NCBI GenBank assembly: GCA_964549075.1
Contig: CAZJUB010000008.1
Location: 23,077-69,109 of the forward strand
Reading direction: 5' to 3'
DNA: 46,033 nucleotides
Source of the DNA: an uncultured archaeon
Lineage (GTDB): Archaea > Asgardarchaeota > Heimdallarchaeia > Heimdallarchaeales > Heimdallarchaeaceae
Positions within the stretch are counted from its first letter, which is position 1. Each line of letters starts with the position of its first letter. Shown piece after piece: positions 2,885 to 22,193 of this stretch. The notes beneath the pieces were generated by a model that searched no databases, was not told the DNA's origin, and saw nothing but the letters and a program-made list of their open reading frames with translations. The translations under genes were made by a program, and so were the position numbers.

Positions 2885-3729
2885 TGCCAGAAGGACCAGA
2901 GGTAGAATATACTCTACAAACTTTGAAAGAACTAGAAGGACTAGTAATTGAATCAATTAAGCTTACAAGACTCTCCCAAAAATATCAAAGATACAAAGGA
3001 AAACAAAAAGAATTTTTATGTTTTTCAAAAAAAGTTTTGAGTAAAATAGAAAGACACGGAAAATTTCTAGTTTGGATTTTTAATAACAATAAAGTAATTC
3101 TTAATCATTTAGGAATGTCAGGAAAGTGGATAATCACCAGTAAAAATAAAATTAAAAATATTAAACATGCCAAAGTTATAATTAATTTTGAAGGAGAAGA
3201 GATTATAACTGTATTTGACGACATAAGAAACTTTGGTCAATTTCGCATTTTCGAGAACTATGATGAGGTAATGAATTACAAACCCATTAAAAAACTTGGT
3301 CTGAATGGCTTGGAATTGCCTTTTCCTAGTTCAGAGTTCTATAAAATCTTAAAACAAAAAAGAAATTTGAATAAAGCAATAGGACAGGTGCTTCTAGATC
3401 AGACTGTTGTAGCTGGTGTGGGGAATATCTATAAATCAGAGTCACTTTTTCTGGCGAAGATAAATCCCCTTAGATCTGTTAAGAGTCTTCAATCGGAAGA
3501 GATTGAAAAAATAGGTAGTGCAATTTCTGAGATTCTGCAGAGAGCTGTAAAAAGCATGGGTAGTACCATCAATGATTACAGAAACCCATATGGTGAAGAA
3601 GGAGAAGCACAAAAATGGCATAAGGTGTATGGTAAAGAGGGAAAAGATTGTATGATTTGTGGTAATAAAATTATGCGAATAGTACAAAATAAAAGAAGTA
3701 CATTTTATTGTGAGAGATGTCAACAATAG
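2884..3729 (+). CDS. mutM: Fpg/Nei-family DNA glycosylase/AP lyase
   Basis: True start is ATG 2884, overlapping the upstream stop (TAATG), giving the catalytic N-terminus PEGPE. Also HGK, HLGMSG, H2TH GVGNIY and the C-terminal Zn finger CMIC...CERC. Confidence 0.92.
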   Translation: MPEGPEVEYTLQTLKELEGLVIESIKLTRLSQKYQRYKGKQKEFLCFSKKVLSKIERHGKFLVWIFNNNKVILNHLGMSGKWIITSKNKIKNIKHAKVIINFEGEEIITVFDDIRNFGQFRIFENYDEVMNYKPIKKLGLNGLELPFPSSEFYKILKQKRNLNKAIGQVLLDQTVVAGVGNIYKSESLFLAKINPLRSVKSLQSEEIEKIGSAISEILQRAVKSMGSTINDYRNPYGEEGEAQKWHKVYGKEGKDCMICGNKIMRIVQNKRSTFYCERCQQ

Positions 3730-3764
3730 GTTAGAGTTTTTTCCAAAAAAGATTTATTGTTAAG

Positions 3765-5774
3765 ATGAAAAAAGAAAATATGCATCTAAATGAGCTGATA
3801 AACAAGATAGCAGAAGAATTATCCGGAGAGAGAACTAAAAAATTAACAGGAAAACTATCTCAATATCACAGAATCCAAGCAAGTACTGAATTTTTAACAG
3901 CTATTAAATTGATAAGAGATGAATTAGAGAAACTTGGAGACACTAATTTTCAAATACATGAGTATATAGCTGATGGTACAAAAAGATATTATGATTGGAA
4001 CACACCCATTTCTTGGGACATAGAAGATGGATCTCTATTATTGGTAGAACCAGTCAAAAAAAATCTTTGTAGTTTTTCAGAAATACCAGAAAGTATTTGT
4101 ACACATTCCAAACCTACAGATATTTTAGCAGAAGTTATTCATGTTGGAGAAGGAAAACGAGAAGATTTCGAAAATGTTGATGTTAATGGAAGAATAGTCT
4201 TAACTACAGCAAGTCCGAGAACAATGATTGAGAGATTATATGAAAATGGAGCTATTGGTATTATAGCATATCCTTCAGAACAAAGAGCGAAAGGATTTTC
4301 TGAAATGGTACAATATGTAGGTTTATGGCCAAATGCAGAAAATGTAGACAAGTCTTCTTTCGGTTTTTCTCTATCCAGAAAACAAGCATTGGAAATCATT
4401 AGTTATTTAAAAGAAGGCAAGAAAGTAACAGTACAAGCTAAAATCAAAGCTAATCTTTACAATGGTAAAATGCATGTACTGTCTACAGAATTAGTGGGTA
4501 ACACAAAGCCTGAAGAGGAAATCATAGTTATAGCACACATTTGCCATCCTGCACCTTCTGCCAATGATAATGCATCAGGAAGCGCTCTACTGTTAGAGAT
4601 TTATAAAACCTTGAAAGCTTTAATAGATAAGAAAATAATCAAACAACCAGATAGAACAATTAGGTTCTTATGGGTTCCTGAATTTAATGGTACAATACCG
4701 TGGATACAGGAAAACATTAAATCAAATTCATTCTCACCTATAATTTGTATTAATCTTGATATGGTTGGAGAGCATCCAGCTTTAATTGGGTATCCTTTTA
4801 CTGTAAACAAATCAAGCGTATCAACACCAACTTACTTTAATGACCTGATTCTAAAAGTCATAGATGAAATCAAAGATAATAATAATGTAGTGGAACAAAG
4901 TGGTTGGCAGTATCCATGGAACTTCAGAATCAAACCTTTTGCTGGAGGTTCAGATCATTTACTTTTCAATGATGAACCTTTACGAATTCCGTCTGTAATG
5001 TTTGGGCATTCTGATATTTTTCACCATACAAATCTTGATACAATTGAAAAAGTTGATTCAACAACTTTGAAAAGAGTAGGATGTACAGCTTTATCTTGTA
5101 CAATAATAAGCTCCTATATCAAAGATTATTCAGAAGAAATTCAAAGAATTTACATCGAAGGATTACAGAAGAGAAAAGGTAGTTTTCTGGAGATGTGCTT
5201 ATTCGAACTCAATATTTTAAAAGATGTTGAAGATAGTATAAACAAGGATTTGAAATTGGTCATATTATTAGAAACAATAGAAACTTTCGAGAAAAATGAG
5301 AAGAAAAGGATAGGAGAAATAGAGCGATTATTTGGAAAGATAAATAATGAACTAATCAAAGGAATTGAAAGTGATTTACAGGAATTTAAGAAATTTATAT
5401 ACAAACTTACAAAGAGTGTAAAAGAGCCAAATCTAAAGCAAGATATTTCAGAATCATTAAATAAAATCCCTATTCGTAAATGGGAAGGACCATTCAATAA
5501 TTCAATCATTTACAAAACATTATATGATCCAGAATCTCTTCAAGAAACAACAAATCTATCTGAAGAAAAAATCATAGAAATAAAAGCATTATCAAAGGTT
5601 TTAATGGAGAATTATGGCGGTCTTACTTTTGAGATAGTGAACCTCATAGATAATAAAAGAAATGTAAAAGAAATTCTTAGTGGTTTAACAATGATAAATT
5701 GGAAATTAATAGAACCAAAGAATCTTATAAGTTTTCTTGAAATGCTTGAAAATCTTCAGTTAATAGAATTTTAA
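3765..5774 (+). CDS. M28-family zinc peptidase with PA domain (DUF4910-like)
   Basis: AHICHP..ANDNASG, WVPE, NLDMVG, GSDH, FHHT metal-binding motifs. Confidence 0.85.
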   Translation: MKKENMHLNELINKIAEELSGERTKKLTGKLSQYHRIQASTEFLTAIKLIRDELEKLGDTNFQIHEYIADGTKRYYDWNTPISWDIEDGSLLLVEPVKKNLCSFSEIPESICTHSKPTDILAEVIHVGEGKREDFENVDVNGRIVLTTASPRTMIERLYENGAIGIIAYPSEQRAKGFSEMVQYVGLWPNAENVDKSSFGFSLSRKQALEIISYLKEGKKVTVQAKIKANLYNGKMHVLSTELVGNTKPEEEIIVIAHICHPAPSANDNASGSALLLEIYKTLKALIDKKIIKQPDRTIRFLWVPEFNGTIPWIQENIKSNSFSPIICINLDMVGEHPALIGYPFTVNKSSVSTPTYFNDLILKVIDEIKDNNNVVEQSGWQYPWNFRIKPFAGGSDHLLFNDEPLRIPSVMFGHSDIFHHTNLDTIEKVDSTTLKRVGCTALSCTIISSYIKDYSEEIQRIYIEGLQKRKGSFLEMCLFELNILKDVEDSINKDLKLVILLETIETFEKNEKKRIGEIERLFGKINNELIKGIESDLQEFKKFIYKLTKSVKEPNLKQDISESLNKIPIRKWEGPFNNSIIYKTLYDPESLQETTNLSEEKIIEIKALSKVLMENYGGLTFEIVNLIDNKRNVKEILSGLTMINWKLIEPKNLISFLEMLENLQLIEF

Positions 5775-17247: not shown

Positions 17248-20200
17248 GTGGATAAGAAAAAACAAGTATTCAAACCAGTTAAGACTTTACCTTCATTTTC
17301 TGATGAAGAAGAAAAAATATTAGAATTTTGGGAGAAAAATGATGTTTTCAAAAAATTAAGAGAGATGAGAAAGGGTAATCCACTCTTTCGTTGGTTGGAA
17401 GGTCCTCCAACTGCAAATGGTCTTCCTCACATTGGACATGCTTTAACAAGAGCTATCAAAGATGTATTCCTAAGACACAAGTCGATGCACGGATTTAATG
17501 TCGTTCCTTGGGTTGCAGGATGGGATTGTCACGGTCTTCCTGTAGAACTAGAAGTAGAGAGAACCCTTGGATTTACTGAAAAAAGTCAGATAGAGGAATT
17601 TGGTTTAAGTAAATTCAATGCAGAATGTAGAAAATCTGTTTTCAAATATGTAAAGGAATGGCAAGAAATGTCCAGACGCATAGGATTCTGGTTAGATTTT
17701 GAAAATAGATATGCCACATTAGATGAAAATTATATAGAAAGCGTTTGGTGGTCTATAAAGGAGATATATAACAAAGACTTACTTTATTTGGGATATAAAG
17801 TAGTGCCTTATTGTCCTAGATGCGGAACGCCTTTGTCTTCACATGAAGTTGGACAAGGAATGATGGAAACTACAGATCCTTCAGTATATGTAAAGTTCAA
17901 AGCTTTAAACTTTGAAGACACATATTATTTAGCATGGACAACAACTCCATGGACTTTGATATCCAATGTTTGTTTGACAGTTCACCCAGAAATTGATTAT
18001 GTACAAGTGGAATATAATGGAGAAAAACTTATCTTAGCTGAGTCAATAGCTAAAGAGCTTCTAGATGACTATAAGGTTTTACAGAAATTCAAAGGTAAAG
18101 ATCTTGAGTATAAAAAATATGAACAACTATTTCCATATATTATACCAAAAGAAGATGCATTCTATGTTACGTTAGCTGACTATGTTACAATTGATGAAGG
18201 TACTGGAATAGTTCATTCAGCTCCAGCATTTGGAGAAGATGATGCACAAATTGGAAAGAAATATGGTTTACCAGTAATGAATCCAGTTTTAGAAGATGGC
18301 ACATTTTCTAAGGAAATCAAGGATTTTGCCGGTTTGTTTGTCAAGGATGCAGATTCCAAGATAATGGAAAACTTGAAGAACAGAGGATTGCTTTTCAAAA
18401 AAGGAGTCTATAAACATACTTATCCATTTTGTTATAGATGTGATGGGCCTTTATTATACTATTCTACTGAAACTTGGTACATTGAAATGTCTAAACTGCG
18501 CAAAAATCTTGTTGCTAACAATGAACAGATAAGATGGCAACCAACTCACCTTAAACACGGGAGGTTCGGTAATTTCATAAGTGAAGCAAGAGATTGGGCT
18601 TTATCTCGAAATAGATATTGGGGTACACCTCTACCTATATGGATTTGTGAGAATAATCACTTAACTGTTGTAGGTAGCTTAAAAGAATTAAAAGAACTTT
18701 ATAGAAAACCTTTAACTGAGGATTTCAGTTTACATAGACCTTGGGTAGACGAAATTACATTTAATTGTCCAGAATGTCAAAAAACTAGTACAAGAGTACC
18801 TTATGTTATTGATTGTTGGTATGATGCTGGAAGTGCATCTTTTGCCCAATATCATTATCCCTTTGAGAATAAAGAACTTTTCCAGAAACACTTTCCATTT
18901 GATTTCATAACAGAAGCGATTGATCAAACAAGAGGTTGGTTCTATACACTATTAGCTATAAGCACTATACTTTTCGATAAACCAGCTTACAAAAATTGTT
19001 TATCAATGGGACATACGCTTGATGATAAAGGTAAAAAAATGAGTAAAAGTAAAGGGAATATGATAAGAGCAGATGATGTAATTCCAAAATACGGAGCAGA
19101 TGCAGTAAGGTGGTTCCTATATTCCTATCCTACTTGGAACAGTGTTCGAGTAGATCCAACACAAATTTATGAAACTATGAAGAAATTTATACTAACACTC
19201 TGGAATAGTTACAGTTTCTTTGTTTCTAATGCTAACGTAGATGGATTTAATACAACAACATTTGATGTCCCATTAAAAGAAAGGTCAGAACTTGATAAAT
19301 GGTTGATTAGCGAAGTAAATTACCTTTCAAAGTCTATTGATGATGCTCTTGATAATATGACTGTACATATAGCTGTTCAAGCTTTTGAAAACTTTGTTAT
19401 TGATAAATTCAGTAACTGGTATTTACGTCAATCTAGACGAAGATTTTGGAAAAATCAACTGGATCAAGATAAAAAATCAGCTTATATTACAACTTATGAA
19501 GTATTAAATATTCTTTCAAAGCTTTTAGCGCCATTTATACCATTCATAGCTGAACAAATGTACCAAAATCTTGTAAAAAGAATAGATTCAGATGCAGCTT
19601 TAAGCATACATCTCCTCTCATATCCAAAAATGGATAAAAATCAGATTGATTCACAGTTATCTACAGAAATGAATAAAGTACTTGCACTTGTAATCGCAGG
19701 AAGAAGTATAAGATCAGAAGCAAACATTAAACTTAGGCAACCACTTTCAGAGCTTATATTGATATCACCTTTAGGAGAGAAGGATTTGATATCAAGATAT
19801 GAAGAAGTATTCAAAGAAGAGCTTAATGTTAAACATGTTACCTTGAAGAAAAGTTCTGATGAATTGGTTAACTATGTCATAAAACCAAATTTCAAGGTTT
19901 TGGCTCCGAAGGTAAGATCAGCTGTAAAGGATATCAGTAACAAACTTGAGAATCTATCACCTGAAAAAACAAGAGAATATGTTGAACTCTTAGCTAAGGG
20001 AGAAGATATAAAACTTGATGTACAAGAAGAAGAATTCAAACTCTCTCCAGACGATGTGGAATACAGAATAGATGTTCAAGAAGGATTTTCTGGAGCAGAA
20101 TCAGAAGGATATCTGATTCTCTTCAATTCGACAATAACTGAAGATTTGAAGAAAGAAGGGTATATACGTGACATAATAAGAAGAGTTCAAACTATGAGAA

Positions 20201-20406
20201 AAGAGCTTGATTTAGAATACACACAGAACATAGAGCTTTCTATAGATGCAGATGTTTTTGGTTCTCAGGCAATTAGTGAATTTAAGGAATATATTAAAGA
20301 AGAAACCTTGGCTACAAAACTTTCTTTACAAAAACCAAAGAATGGATTGGTTAAAAATTGGGAATTTGATGATTTTAAGGTTATAATAGGTATTAATCCA
20401 TTATAA
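17248..20406 (+). CDS. ileS: Isoleucine--tRNA ligase (archaeal/eukaryotic type)
   Basis: EGPPTANGLPHIGH, GWDCHGLP, AWTTTPWTL, GTGIVH, DW.LSRNRYWGTP, KMSKS. GTG start. Confidence 0.97.
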   Translation: MDKKKQVFKPVKTLPSFSDEEEKILEFWEKNDVFKKLREMRKGNPLFRWLEGPPTANGLPHIGHALTRAIKDVFLRHKSMHGFNVVPWVAGWDCHGLPVELEVERTLGFTEKSQIEEFGLSKFNAECRKSVFKYVKEWQEMSRRIGFWLDFENRYATLDENYIESVWWSIKEIYNKDLLYLGYKVVPYCPRCGTPLSSHEVGQGMMETTDPSVYVKFKALNFEDTYYLAWTTTPWTLISNVCLTVHPEIDYVQVEYNGEKLILAESIAKELLDDYKVLQKFKGKDLEYKKYEQLFPYIIPKEDAFYVTLADYVTIDEGTGIVHSAPAFGEDDAQIGKKYGLPVMNPVLEDGTFSKEIKDFAGLFVKDADSKIMENLKNRGLLFKKGVYKHTYPFCYRCDGPLLYYSTETWYIEMSKLRKNLVANNEQIRWQPTHLKHGRFGNFISEARDWALSRNRYWGTPLPIWICENNHLTVVGSLKELKELYRKPLTEDFSLHRPWVDEITFNCPECQKTSTRVPYVIDCWYDAGSASFAQYHYPFENKELFQKHFPFDFITEAIDQTRGWFYTLLAISTILFDKPAYKNCLSMGHTLDDKGKKMSKSKGNMIRADDVIPKYGADAVRWFLYSYPTWNSVRVDPTQIYETMKKFILTLWNSYSFFVSNANVDGFNTTTFDVPLKERSELDKWLISEVNYLSKSIDDALDNMTVHIAVQAFENFVIDKFSNWYLRQSRRRFWKNQLDQDKKSAYITTYEVLNILSKLLAPFIPFIAEQMYQNLVKRIDSDAALSIHLLSYPKMDKNQIDSQLSTEMNKVLALVIAGRSIRSEANIKLRQPLSELILISPLGEKDLISRYEEVFKEELNVKHVTLKKSSDELVNYVIKPNFKVLAPKVRSAVKDISNKLENLSPEKTREYVELLAKGEDIKLDVQEEEFKLSPDDVEYRIDVQEGFSGAESEGYLILFNSTITEDLKKEGYIRDIIRRVQTMRKELDLEYTQNIELSIDADVFGSQAISEFKEYIKEETLATKLSLQKPKNGLVKNWEFDDFKVIIGINPL

Positions 20407-20480
20407 TCCAATCATTTTTCATTTTTCTTTTTCTACTCAAACAGAGTAATAAATAAAAACCAGATAATATAGATACTAAT

Positions 20481-20538
20481 TGGCGATGATTTAACCGTCC
20501 CAGTCAGATCTATGAAGAACTCACGACGAAATGAGCCA
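20481..20538 (+). ncRNA. Box C/D sRNA (predicted guide for LSU rRNA Gm2251-equivalent)
   Basis: Terminal TGGC/GCCA, box C GCGATGA, D' CAGA, C' ATGAAGA, D ATGA. Both guides complement conserved LSU rRNA sequence. Followed by a T tract. Confidence 0.8.
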
Positions 20539-20618
20539 CCATTTTTCATTAATTTCTAAAATATAGAAGAAAGTCTAAAAGCTAAAATCTTATTTAGTAT
20601 TCAATATTCGAGATAAAT

Positions 20619-22193
20619 GTGAGAAGCTCAGATACTAGCCATTTTACTGTCTTATATCATCAACCAGGTCATCTTAGACCTGTAAATATAATAAGAGAGA
20701 TTGGGGAATATGTTTTTACAGGAAGTCAAGACGGTAGAGTATGTATCTGGGATAACAAGATGCAAAGGGAGTTAGGTTGTATATATGCCCATAATGCACC
20801 AATTGTCGACATACAATGTACTACAGATGAAAAATATCTGATAACAGCTGCTCAAGAACTCATGCTTAAAATCTGGTTTATGAATAATTTTAATTTGGCG
20901 GATTCAGTAAAAGGCCATATTTCTACTATGATAGGAGCAAAAGGAGTAGAAAATCATATTATCAGTGCTAGTAAGGATTTGCAACTTAAAAAATGGGAAG
21001 TAATAGAAAATAAATTGAAACTAGTTACAAAGAAACGTGTCATCTCTATGGATAAAATTTTTGCAGATAAAAATAGACTATTAATTTCAGATACTGAAGG
21101 TGATAAAATCATTTTAAATTCTAATAATTTCAACCAAATTACATCTTTATTTGTAAATGATTCTAAGGTCTTGAGAGCCATTAGAAAAGCATCAAAATAC
21201 GTAGAGGAATTTGCGAAAAAGGATCCTCATGCACTTCTATTTAATATTTCTAGAAAGAATGGATTTCCCGTATTAGCTTTCAAAACAACTCCAGAATATT
21301 ATCTACTAGGGCACGAGTTTGGATTTGTATCAATCTGGAACAAAAAAACACTGAAGTTGTTTAAAGCTTTTTTTGTCCATGGCAAGCACATAACTGGTAT
21401 AGAGAAACACGGAGATTATCTCTTCTCAACTTCTCTTGATTCTTCTATTGCTAAATTTGATATTCAAAAACAGAGACCTATTAAAGTTATTAATTTACCC
21501 AACAGGCCTTATTCGTTGTTAAAAACGACTAGTAATGACTTAATAGTAGGTTTAGAAAGCGGAGATATTTTACTTTATAATACTAATCTAGAGATTAAAG
21601 GAAAACACAGAGGTATAAAATTAATTACAAGTGCAGAAATTACACCTTCCAAACTCGTTTTAGCTTATAATTCTGGAGAAATTAACTTAATTAATAATTC
21701 AAATTTAGAACTTATTTTAAGTAAGAAATTACATGAAAAACCCATTCTTGGTGTATTTTATTTCGAGAACAATATAATTTCTGTTGGTGATGATGGCAAA
21801 ATTCTGGTTTTGGATGAAAATCTTGAGATATTAAAAAGGATAGAGTTTTATGATAAAAAAACCACTGTTAGGAGGGTGAAACAATATATCACTTTGACAC
21901 CAAATCATGTTTTCGATTTAAGAAAAGAAGAAGTCATCAAAGGGGAGATTTCTAGTGCAACTGATAAGGAATTAAAAGAGATTGAAGCTTTTAAAGTATC
22001 TTTAATTAAAGGTGATGCTTTGATTAAGATTCAACAAGAGATTTTGAACAATGAATATACAGCAGACACAAAGAATTACCACACTCAAGAAATTATAGAT
22101 TCCCTACTAACACTATCTAAAGCTTCTGAAAAATCATATTATAAACAAACTTCTGATTTTACTGTGTTATCAAATGATATCATAAAACATTAA
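20619..22193 (+). CDS. WD40-repeat protein
   Basis: TGSQDGRVCIWD, AH..., ELMLKIW, GH...SASKDLQLKKWE, SVGDDGKI repeats. No signal peptide. Confidence 0.85.
   Translation: MRSSDTSHFTVLYHQPGHLRPVNIIREIGEYVFTGSQDGRVCIWDNKMQRELGCIYAHNAPIVDIQCTTDEKYLITAAQELMLKIWFMNNFNLADSVKGHISTMIGAKGVENHIISASKDLQLKKWEVIENKLKLVTKKRVISMDKIFADKNRLLISDTEGDKIILNSNNFNQITSLFVNDSKVLRAIRKASKYVEEFAKKDPHALLFNISRKNGFPVLAFKTTPEYYLLGHEFGFVSIWNKKTLKLFKAFFVHGKHITGIEKHGDYLFSTSLDSSIAKFDIQKQRPIKVINLPNRPYSLLKTTSNDLIVGLESGDILLYNTNLEIKGKHRGIKLITSAEITPSKLVLAYNSGEINLINNSNLELILSKKLHEKPILGVFYFENNIISVGDDGKILVLDENLEILKRIEFYDKKTTVRRVKQYITLTPNHVFDLRKEEVIKGEISSATDKELKEIEAFKVSLIKGDALIKIQQEILNNEYTADTKNYHTQEIIDSLLTLSKASEKSYYKQTSDFTVLSNDIIKH

Follow-up and report, generated by a model that had tools for sequence, protein, structure and literature searches.

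Between the isoleucine-tRNA ligase gene (ileS) and a WD40-repeat protein gene of a Heimdallarchaeota archaeon lies an intergenic gap of 212 nt, and the question raised by this locus was whether the gap holds an RNA gene and, if so, what that RNA would act upon. The gap belongs to a 46,033-nt stretch of DNA, referred to here as the window, and contains the 58-nt element TGGCGATGATTTAACCGTCCCAGTCAGATCTATGAAGAACTCACGACGAAATGAGCCA, which the original prediction had taken for an intergenic box C/D sRNA, its D' guide pointing to methylation of the P-loop of the large subunit (LSU) rRNA at Gm2251 (E. coli numbering). Comparative evidence supported the core of this reading, while the frame of one box, the degree to which the boxes were said to deviate from consensus and the idea of a lineage peculiarity all required revision. 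We consider it highly probable that the element is a dual-guide box C/D sRNA gene, its D' guide being predicted to address the equivalent of G2251 and its D guide the equivalent of U2460, a second target that goes beyond the original prediction. The sRNA is an unannotated instance of a well-known RNA class and not a new kind of RNA.

The host assembly (G000; 3.23 Mb in 217 contigs, 32% G+C, 89.7% complete) carries the window on its contig C8, and the relatives of its ileS were all labelled as Candidatus Heimdallarchaeota metagenome-assembled genomes (MAGs), AB_125 among them. The position and strand of the sRNA, its TGGC...GCCA ends and the places of its D', C' and D boxes agreed with the sequence as originally quoted (Table 1). 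The gene is probably transcribed from an A/T-rich promoter of its own between ileS and the WD40 gene: a block of the AATAAATAAAAA type 5' of the sRNA is kept across 16 aligned same-genus loci, and in the other genera A/T-rich blocks of differing sequence occur at an equal distance 5' of it (~22-34 nt). T-runs follow the sRNA in many homologues, not all. A scan for bacterial-type promoters and terminators, which is not relevant to archaea, returned nothing useful.

Table 1. The sRNA, its parts and its neighbours; all positions are those of the window.
Feature	Position	Strand	Basis or remark
ileS (isoleucine-tRNA ligase), upstream neighbour	17248..20406	+	TIGR00392, 941.8 bits (cut-off 621.4)
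A/T-rich TATA-like element, putative archaeal promoter	20447..20459	+	predicted; ~22-34 nt 5' of the sRNA
Whole box C/D sRNA, 58 nt	20481..20538	+	sequence, BLAST, covariance model
Terminal stem, 5' half, UGGC	20481..20484	+	pairs with 20535-20538
C box AUGAUUU	20486..20492	+	frame set by homologues with UGU or CGU replacing GAU
D' guide, 12 nt, AACCGUCCCAGU	20493..20504	+	pairs with own LSU 3022-3032
D' box CAGA	20505..20508	+	CUGA in 24/30 homologues
Variable D'-C' loop	20509..20511	+	lowest conservation in the alignment; 3-8 nt, 18 nt in G034
C' box AUGAAGA	20512..20518	+	RUGAUGU/A in most homologues
D guide, 12 nt, ACUCACGACGAA	20519..20530	+	best match own LSU 3603-3613
D box AUGA	20531..20534	+	ATGA in 26/30 homologues
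Terminal stem, 3' half, GCCA	20535..20538	+	pairs with 20481-20484
T5 run, possible archaeal terminator	20542..20546	+	sequence; putative
WD40-repeat protein gene, downstream neighbour	20619..22193	+	generic WD40 / beta-propeller Pfam matches

The anatomy of the element is that of stem, C, 12 nt, D', 3 nt, C', 12 nt, D and stem, with a stem of 4 bp. The C box had originally been placed on GCGATGA, which proved to be three bases out of frame and was rejected: at that place 5 of the 30 homologues read GCTGTGA or GCCGTGA, and the essential GA is lost. These five, in the form GGC-TGT-GATTT or GGC-CGT-GATTT, decided the frame, and the C box is instead ATGATTT or GTGATTT, because a fixed 12-nt parse then finds the GA in 29 of 30 homologues. 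The one miss under this parse is G033, whose D' spacer is 13 nt long, the length being 12 nt in the other 29; in the host the corrected frame likewise gives a D' spacer of 12 nt and not 15.

With the frame so set, the C-box side of the terminal kink-turn could be laid out as a 3-nt bulge, G85-A86-U87 (last two digits of the window position), followed by the sheared G-A core G88-A89, the A and U of the bulge doubling as bases 1-2 of the 7-nt C box. The GA at 20488-89 faces the GA at 20533-34, an arrangement kept in 29/30 C boxes and 30/30 D boxes, and the G-A cores of all four boxes are present in 29-30 of the 30 homologues. Relative to the consensus RUGAUGA / CUGA, the host boxes depart at C positions 6-7 and D position 1, where U6-A1 replaces G6-C1; the kink-turn pairs thus run G-A, A-G, U.U and then U-A instead of the usual G-C. 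Among the homologues the pair between C-box position 6 and D-box position 1 is U-A in 27, A-U in two (G034 and G019, in which both sides have changed) and A.C in one. Since the pair is kept, or swapped on both sides, the boxes are compensated variants: in the predicted fold the odd C and D boxes compensate each other, and all four G-A cores are intact. The claim that all four boxes deviate from consensus was therefore an overstatement, all the more so as the D' box has the consensus form in most homologues. In the internal motif all 30 homologues retain a G-C pair joining C' position 6 to D' position 1, and the adjacent non-canonical pair (the C' A5 / D' A2 site) is U.U in 24/30, A.G in three, A.A in the host, U.A in one and G.U in one. 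Within the genus all four pairs of the terminal stem are invariant across 15 distinct sequences, which is why a standard-pair covariation count for the stem came up empty; coherent changes were seen in G034 (UGGCC/GGCCA) and in G019 (UCC/GGA).

As limits for an archaeal box C/D sRNA we took spacers of ~12 nt, a total length of ~50-70 nt, guide complementarity to rRNA or tRNA of 9-10 bp or more and a Watson-Crick pair at the fifth position upstream of D' or D. The kink-turn, the range of box variation, the D'/C' motif, the spacer and total lengths and the guide complementarity of the element were all those of this class. A four-box regular expression with 11-13-nt spacers matched three sites in the 3.2-Mb genome, the sRNA included, and none in the reversed genome. 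The two other sites are four-box candidates in their own right: one at G000:C7 ~9492 (-), whose D' guide has an 11-bp rRNA match with a score of 22, and one at G000:C24 ~14203 (+), with a D' guide rRNA match scoring 19, the guides of both having been scored against the host LSU and the 16S of the relative G001 together.

The distribution of the element in relatives followed the boxes and the guides. A BLAST search with a 78-nt query against 30 relatives produced matches in 15 of 18 same-genus genomes, covering query positions 11-72 only, that is, the element without its flanks, and there was no match in the 12 genomes of other families. A covariance model (R1) was built from 15 distinct sequences, and at the host locus it spans 20479-20541 of the window (G000:C8:43555-43617). 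It found the sRNA, in one copy each, in 28 of the 30 other genomes of its GTDB family (f1), representing all five genera: 22/24 within the genus and 6/6 in the four other genera. The two within-genus genomes lacking a match are 72% and 78% complete. Outside the family the model matched the one f2 genome (E = 2e-4) and gave a doubtful match in one of three f4 genomes, and nothing in the 12 f3 genomes. No Rfam family reached its gathering score. The conserved columns of the alignment are the boxes and the guides, the D'-C' loop and the flanks being variable. Weak second matches of the model were seen in two single-contig genomes of the genus g12, at G036:C1:2147873-2147936 (+), E = 0.0099, and G035:C1:1990534-1990597 (-), E = 0.099; they may be further C/D sRNAs whose boxes are similar.

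The neighbourhood is conserved as well. The sRNA, with its boxes and guides, lies 63-111 nt 3' of ileS in 26 of 30 matches, and it lies upstream of the WD40 gene in 29/30, including three genomes in which ileS is not upstream. The WD40 / beta-propeller product is a protein of 524 aa; its gene is on the strand of the sRNA and, adjoining it in 29 of 30 genomes, is a more constant neighbour than ileS.

Such tight linkage to the WD40 gene is what would be expected if the element were not a guide RNA at all but a conserved cis element, for instance a terminator of ileS or a leader of the WD40 gene, resembling boxes and rRNA complements by chance, and it could be added that each guide match taken singly is of only modest significance (see below). 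We regard this explanation as extremely improbable. It has to contend with four boxes at the canonical 12-nt spacing, with the conservation of both guides while the loop and flanks drift, with compensatory changes in both the kink-turn and the guide-target pairs, and with the occurrence across the phylum of the P-loop guide plus D' box inside C/D architectures in unrelated genomic contexts.

We return, then, to the box C/D sRNA and to the question of what its guides pair with. The host LSU rRNA gene is the 4235-nt G000:C65:1287-5521, and its positions were converted to E. coli numbering with E. coli K-12 rrlH, using BLAST blocks and segment alignments. The D' guide ACCGTCCCAGT finds its complement in the organism's own 23S rRNA, at LSU 3022-3032 (ACUGGGGCGGU), with 10 Watson-Crick pairs and one G-U. 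The original prediction had extended this pairing by one further C, which is unpaired, as the host has C and not G at the equivalent of E. coli 2246; the remainder of the pairing, with its single G-U, stood. The fifth position upstream of D' forms a C-G pair with LSU G3026, the alignment counterpart of E. coli G2251 and exactly the nucleotide originally named. Of 13 genomes in which both RNAs were available, 12 pair the D' guide with their own LSU in 10-11 contiguous pairs that bring the fifth position to the G2251 equivalent, the exception being G033, whose 13-nt D' spacer shifts it to the G2250 equivalent. The G-U wobble falls on the G2253 equivalent in some genera and on the G2252 equivalent in others through C/U swaps, a shift that C/U drift opposite a GGGG run would be expected to give.

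The host guide match was also weighed against chance. In the 4235-nt LSU the observed D' score was reached somewhere by 36 of 3000 shuffled guides and by 94 of 2998 random genomic 12-mers; for the D guide the corresponding numbers were 50/3000 and 224/2998. By either control, single guide matches therefore have p = ~0.01-0.07, and because they are individually modest, the case rests on conservation. On that footing, a predicted 2'-O-methylation of the G2251 equivalent in the P-loop (helix 80) is the most likely function of the D' guide.

There are signs that the D' half may have been weakened in the subclade formed by the host and three close relatives, for in these the D' box is CAGA (host) or CGGA (G001, G038 and G042), the C' box is AUGAAGA, and G001 has a C.U mismatch at D'-guide position 3. 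The same observations lend something to the proposal that the host RNA is mainly a chaperone of rRNA folding, or a single (D) guide, in which a drifted D'/C' leaves the D' half to pair with the P-loop with no methylation ensuing; chaperone roles and guide halves that do not methylate are among the matters discussed by Dennis et al. 2015 (PMC4644070). We judge it quite unlikely for the host RNA, in that the D'/C' G-A cores are intact in the host as well as in G001, G038 and G042, the D'/C' changes are confined to one non-canonical pair and affect both of its sides (U.U to A.A or A.G), and the 11-bp D' guide match is fully kept in G000.

The D guide matched the host LSU best at 3603-3613, on the 5' strand of helix 89, with nine Watson-Crick and two G-U pairs, and the fifth position upstream of D is an A-U pair at U3606, the equivalent of E. 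coli U2460. The base three positions upstream of this target aligns with E. coli U2457, a known pseudouridine site. A scan for other targets, in which the 16S of same-genus relatives stood in for the unassembled host 16S, revealed none better for either guide among these 16S genes or 23 tRNAs. The helix-89 site was among the top two matches of the D guide in 12/12 genomes with the region and came first in eight. Guide positions 9-11, which lie opposite GGG, vary only between C and U, and in G019 an A-to-G change of the guide is accompanied by a U-to-C change of the helix-89 target, a compensatory pair of changes. The helix-89 U2460 equivalent is thus the most likely nucleotide to be selected by the D guide for its predicted methylation.

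Another possible address for the same guide is helix 93, at U3739 of the host LSU (the E. coli U2593 equivalent), acting instead of helix 89 or besides it. Within the genus g1 the two sites pair about equally well. Helix 93 ranks first in G009, G004 and G002, is tied in G014 and comes second in G000, G031 and G034, and in the distant G052 the two sites give eight pairs each. Yet helix 93 falls outside the top three in five of the 12 genomes (G005, G036, G035, G033 and G019), in which the guides have changed, whereas helix 89 stays within the top two in all 12, and variation restricted to C and U at guide positions 9-11 suits the GGG of helix 89 and not the A of helix 93. A role for helix 93 is for these reasons unlikely, and we retain helix 89 as the predicted target.

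The host 23S gene is 4235 nt long, compared with 3382-3578 nt for five full-length LSU genes of the same genus. An extra insertion of ~650 nt, noted at L001 (G000:C65) 3282-3839 within the LSU gene, lies between the equivalents of E. coli 1703 and 1889; it holds an open reading frame of 185 aa with a LAGLIDADG_3 domain (45.6 bits), from which the insertion is likely a homing-endonuclease intron. A second insertion, of ~370-390 nt (L001 ~4523-4890; own LSU ~3237-3600), lies just 5' of helix 89, is bounded by GGGGUAAC and a second ...CUGAAC repeat, and ends ~9 nt before the D-guide target. The distance from the P-loop to helix 89 is ~600-640 nt in all the family members checked versus 245 nt in E. 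coli, so that the insertion is a conserved intron or expansion.

How the sRNA would work can be proposed by analogy with characterised archaeal C/D sRNPs. Its ends would form the 4-bp stem and then a kink-turn made from the C box AUGAUUU and the D box AUGA, with the internal D' (CAGA) / C' (AUGAAGA) motif as a second kink element. L7Ae would bind both motifs, a Nop5 dimer would bridge them, and fibrillarin would methylate the 2'-OH of whichever target nucleotide is paired with the guide base five positions upstream of D' or D. On the P-loop, the D' guide would in this way select the G2251 equivalent, and the D guide, on the 5' strand of helix 89, the U2460 equivalent.

Of these proteins, L7Ae is present in the host genome, and fibrillarin and Nop5 were not found in the 89.7% complete assembly. 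Fibrillarin was found in 30/30 relatives and Nop5 in 5/5 of those checked, where it adjoins fibrillarin, and with the two genes adjacent a single assembly gap could likely account for both absences; a lineage devoid of the methylation machinery was rejected on the same counts. The host genome also has a fragment of a SpoU-family gene at a contig edge. As this family had matches in 14/14 control genomes, the search is uninformative with respect to a stand-alone enzyme for G2251, of the kind represented in mitochondria by Mrm1/Pet56, a SPOUT enzyme that makes Gm2251.

In bacteria the same nucleotide, Gm2251, is the product of RlmB, likewise a stand-alone SPOUT enzyme, which PMC11542601 presents as protein-only and without a guide RNA. 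Guided methylation at this site was originally supposed to set the present lineage apart, but it is no peculiarity, since the guide and D' box occur in many genomes of the phylum and Dennis et al. 2015 (PMC4644070) report a prediction for "position G2520 (i.e. E. coli G2251) in three organisms", all archaea. Those sRNAs are of the same class and have the same predicted helix 80 nucleotide under the fifth-position rule; they come from thermophilic archaea, whereas ours is from a Heimdallarchaeota MAG, and the comparison is one of predicted targets. For the archaeon Haloarcula marismortui the sources conflict: Table 1 of PMC11542601 treats H. marismortui Gm1950 as E. coli Gm2251 and assigns it to "aFIB + sRNA", while in a table of Grosjean et al. 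2008 (PMC2584109) position 1950 corresponds to E. coli C1909 and Gm2251 has no haloarchaeal counterpart. Going by these tables one of the two is in error, and given their disagreement the haloarchaeal case was not relied upon. A literature search for published Asgard C/D sRNAs found no report.

At the gathering thresholds Rfam gave no match anywhere in the window, and at E-value thresholds it gave only sub-threshold C/D families, of which sR38 and SNORD31 were the best. Pyrococcus sR38 (RF01121) has a consensus with unusual GGCGAUGAUUU ... AAUGAGC ends, the same C-box/D-box variant as our sRNA, which, scoring 22.8 bits where 50 is the gathering threshold, is nonetheless not a member; the guide regions, and hence the targets, differ. 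The eukaryotic SNORD31 / U31 family (RF00089) resembles the D' half: its consensus has UGAUGA, a spacer ending in UACCGCCCCAGU, and CUGA, so that guide, D' slot and register all agree with those of AACCGUCCCAGU-CAGA in the host. Table 1 of PMC11542601 lists a U31-type snoRNA of plants for 25S Gm2620, the counterpart of E. coli Gm2251. The sRNA scored 17.2 and 14.2 bits, far short of the gathering score of 40, and is not a member of this family either. Moreover, since the SNORD31 guide is dictated by a universal target, the slot is the only free similarity.

Of 301 genomes searched in the phylum, 82 contain a 14-nt pattern, "P-loop guide plus CTGA", which was strongly enriched in particular families (f5, 19/21; f21, 5/5; f12, 4/5; f7, 2/2), and matches to reversed-pattern controls were mainly in f11. 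On inspection of 30 loci outside the family, 24 had the motif in a C/D architecture and six were chance matches. In 15 of the 24 the motif occupies the D' slot (f13, f6, f17, f12, f16, f21 and f28), and in nine, from f5 and f7, it occupies the D slot, unlike SNORD31. In several of the D'-slot loci the second guide belongs to the CGCGAC / CAUGAC type. The LSU rRNA was not found in four of five distant genomes, and pairing with a genome's own LSU outside the order was checked in G052, where the D' guide forms 10 pairs on the G2251 equivalent.

It is tempting to go further and to see in these loci an ancient, Asgard-wide family of P-loop guides, in the D' slot in several families of the phylum and often accompanied by a CGCGAC / CACGAC-type second guide, that was the direct ancestor of eukaryotic U31/SNORD31. 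If true, a snoRNA family could be traced from Asgard archaea into eukaryotes. We hold such descent to be very doubtful. The recurrence of the guide and D' box in the phylum and in the SNORD31 consensus does make the question of snoRNA ancestry a testable one, though a common target largely imposes a common guide.

The sRNA family also offers a natural example of a compensated kink-turn variant, with U-A in place of G-C at the fourth pair of the terminal motif and, in the internal one, a third pair that has gone from U.U to A.A or A.G. A well-supported C/D guide RNA can be added to Heimdallarchaeota, which among archaea are usually placed nearest to eukaryotes. To judge from its guide, the universally important P-loop Gm is in this lineage most likely made in the eukaryotic way, by means of an RNA guide, as opposed to the RlmB of bacteria.
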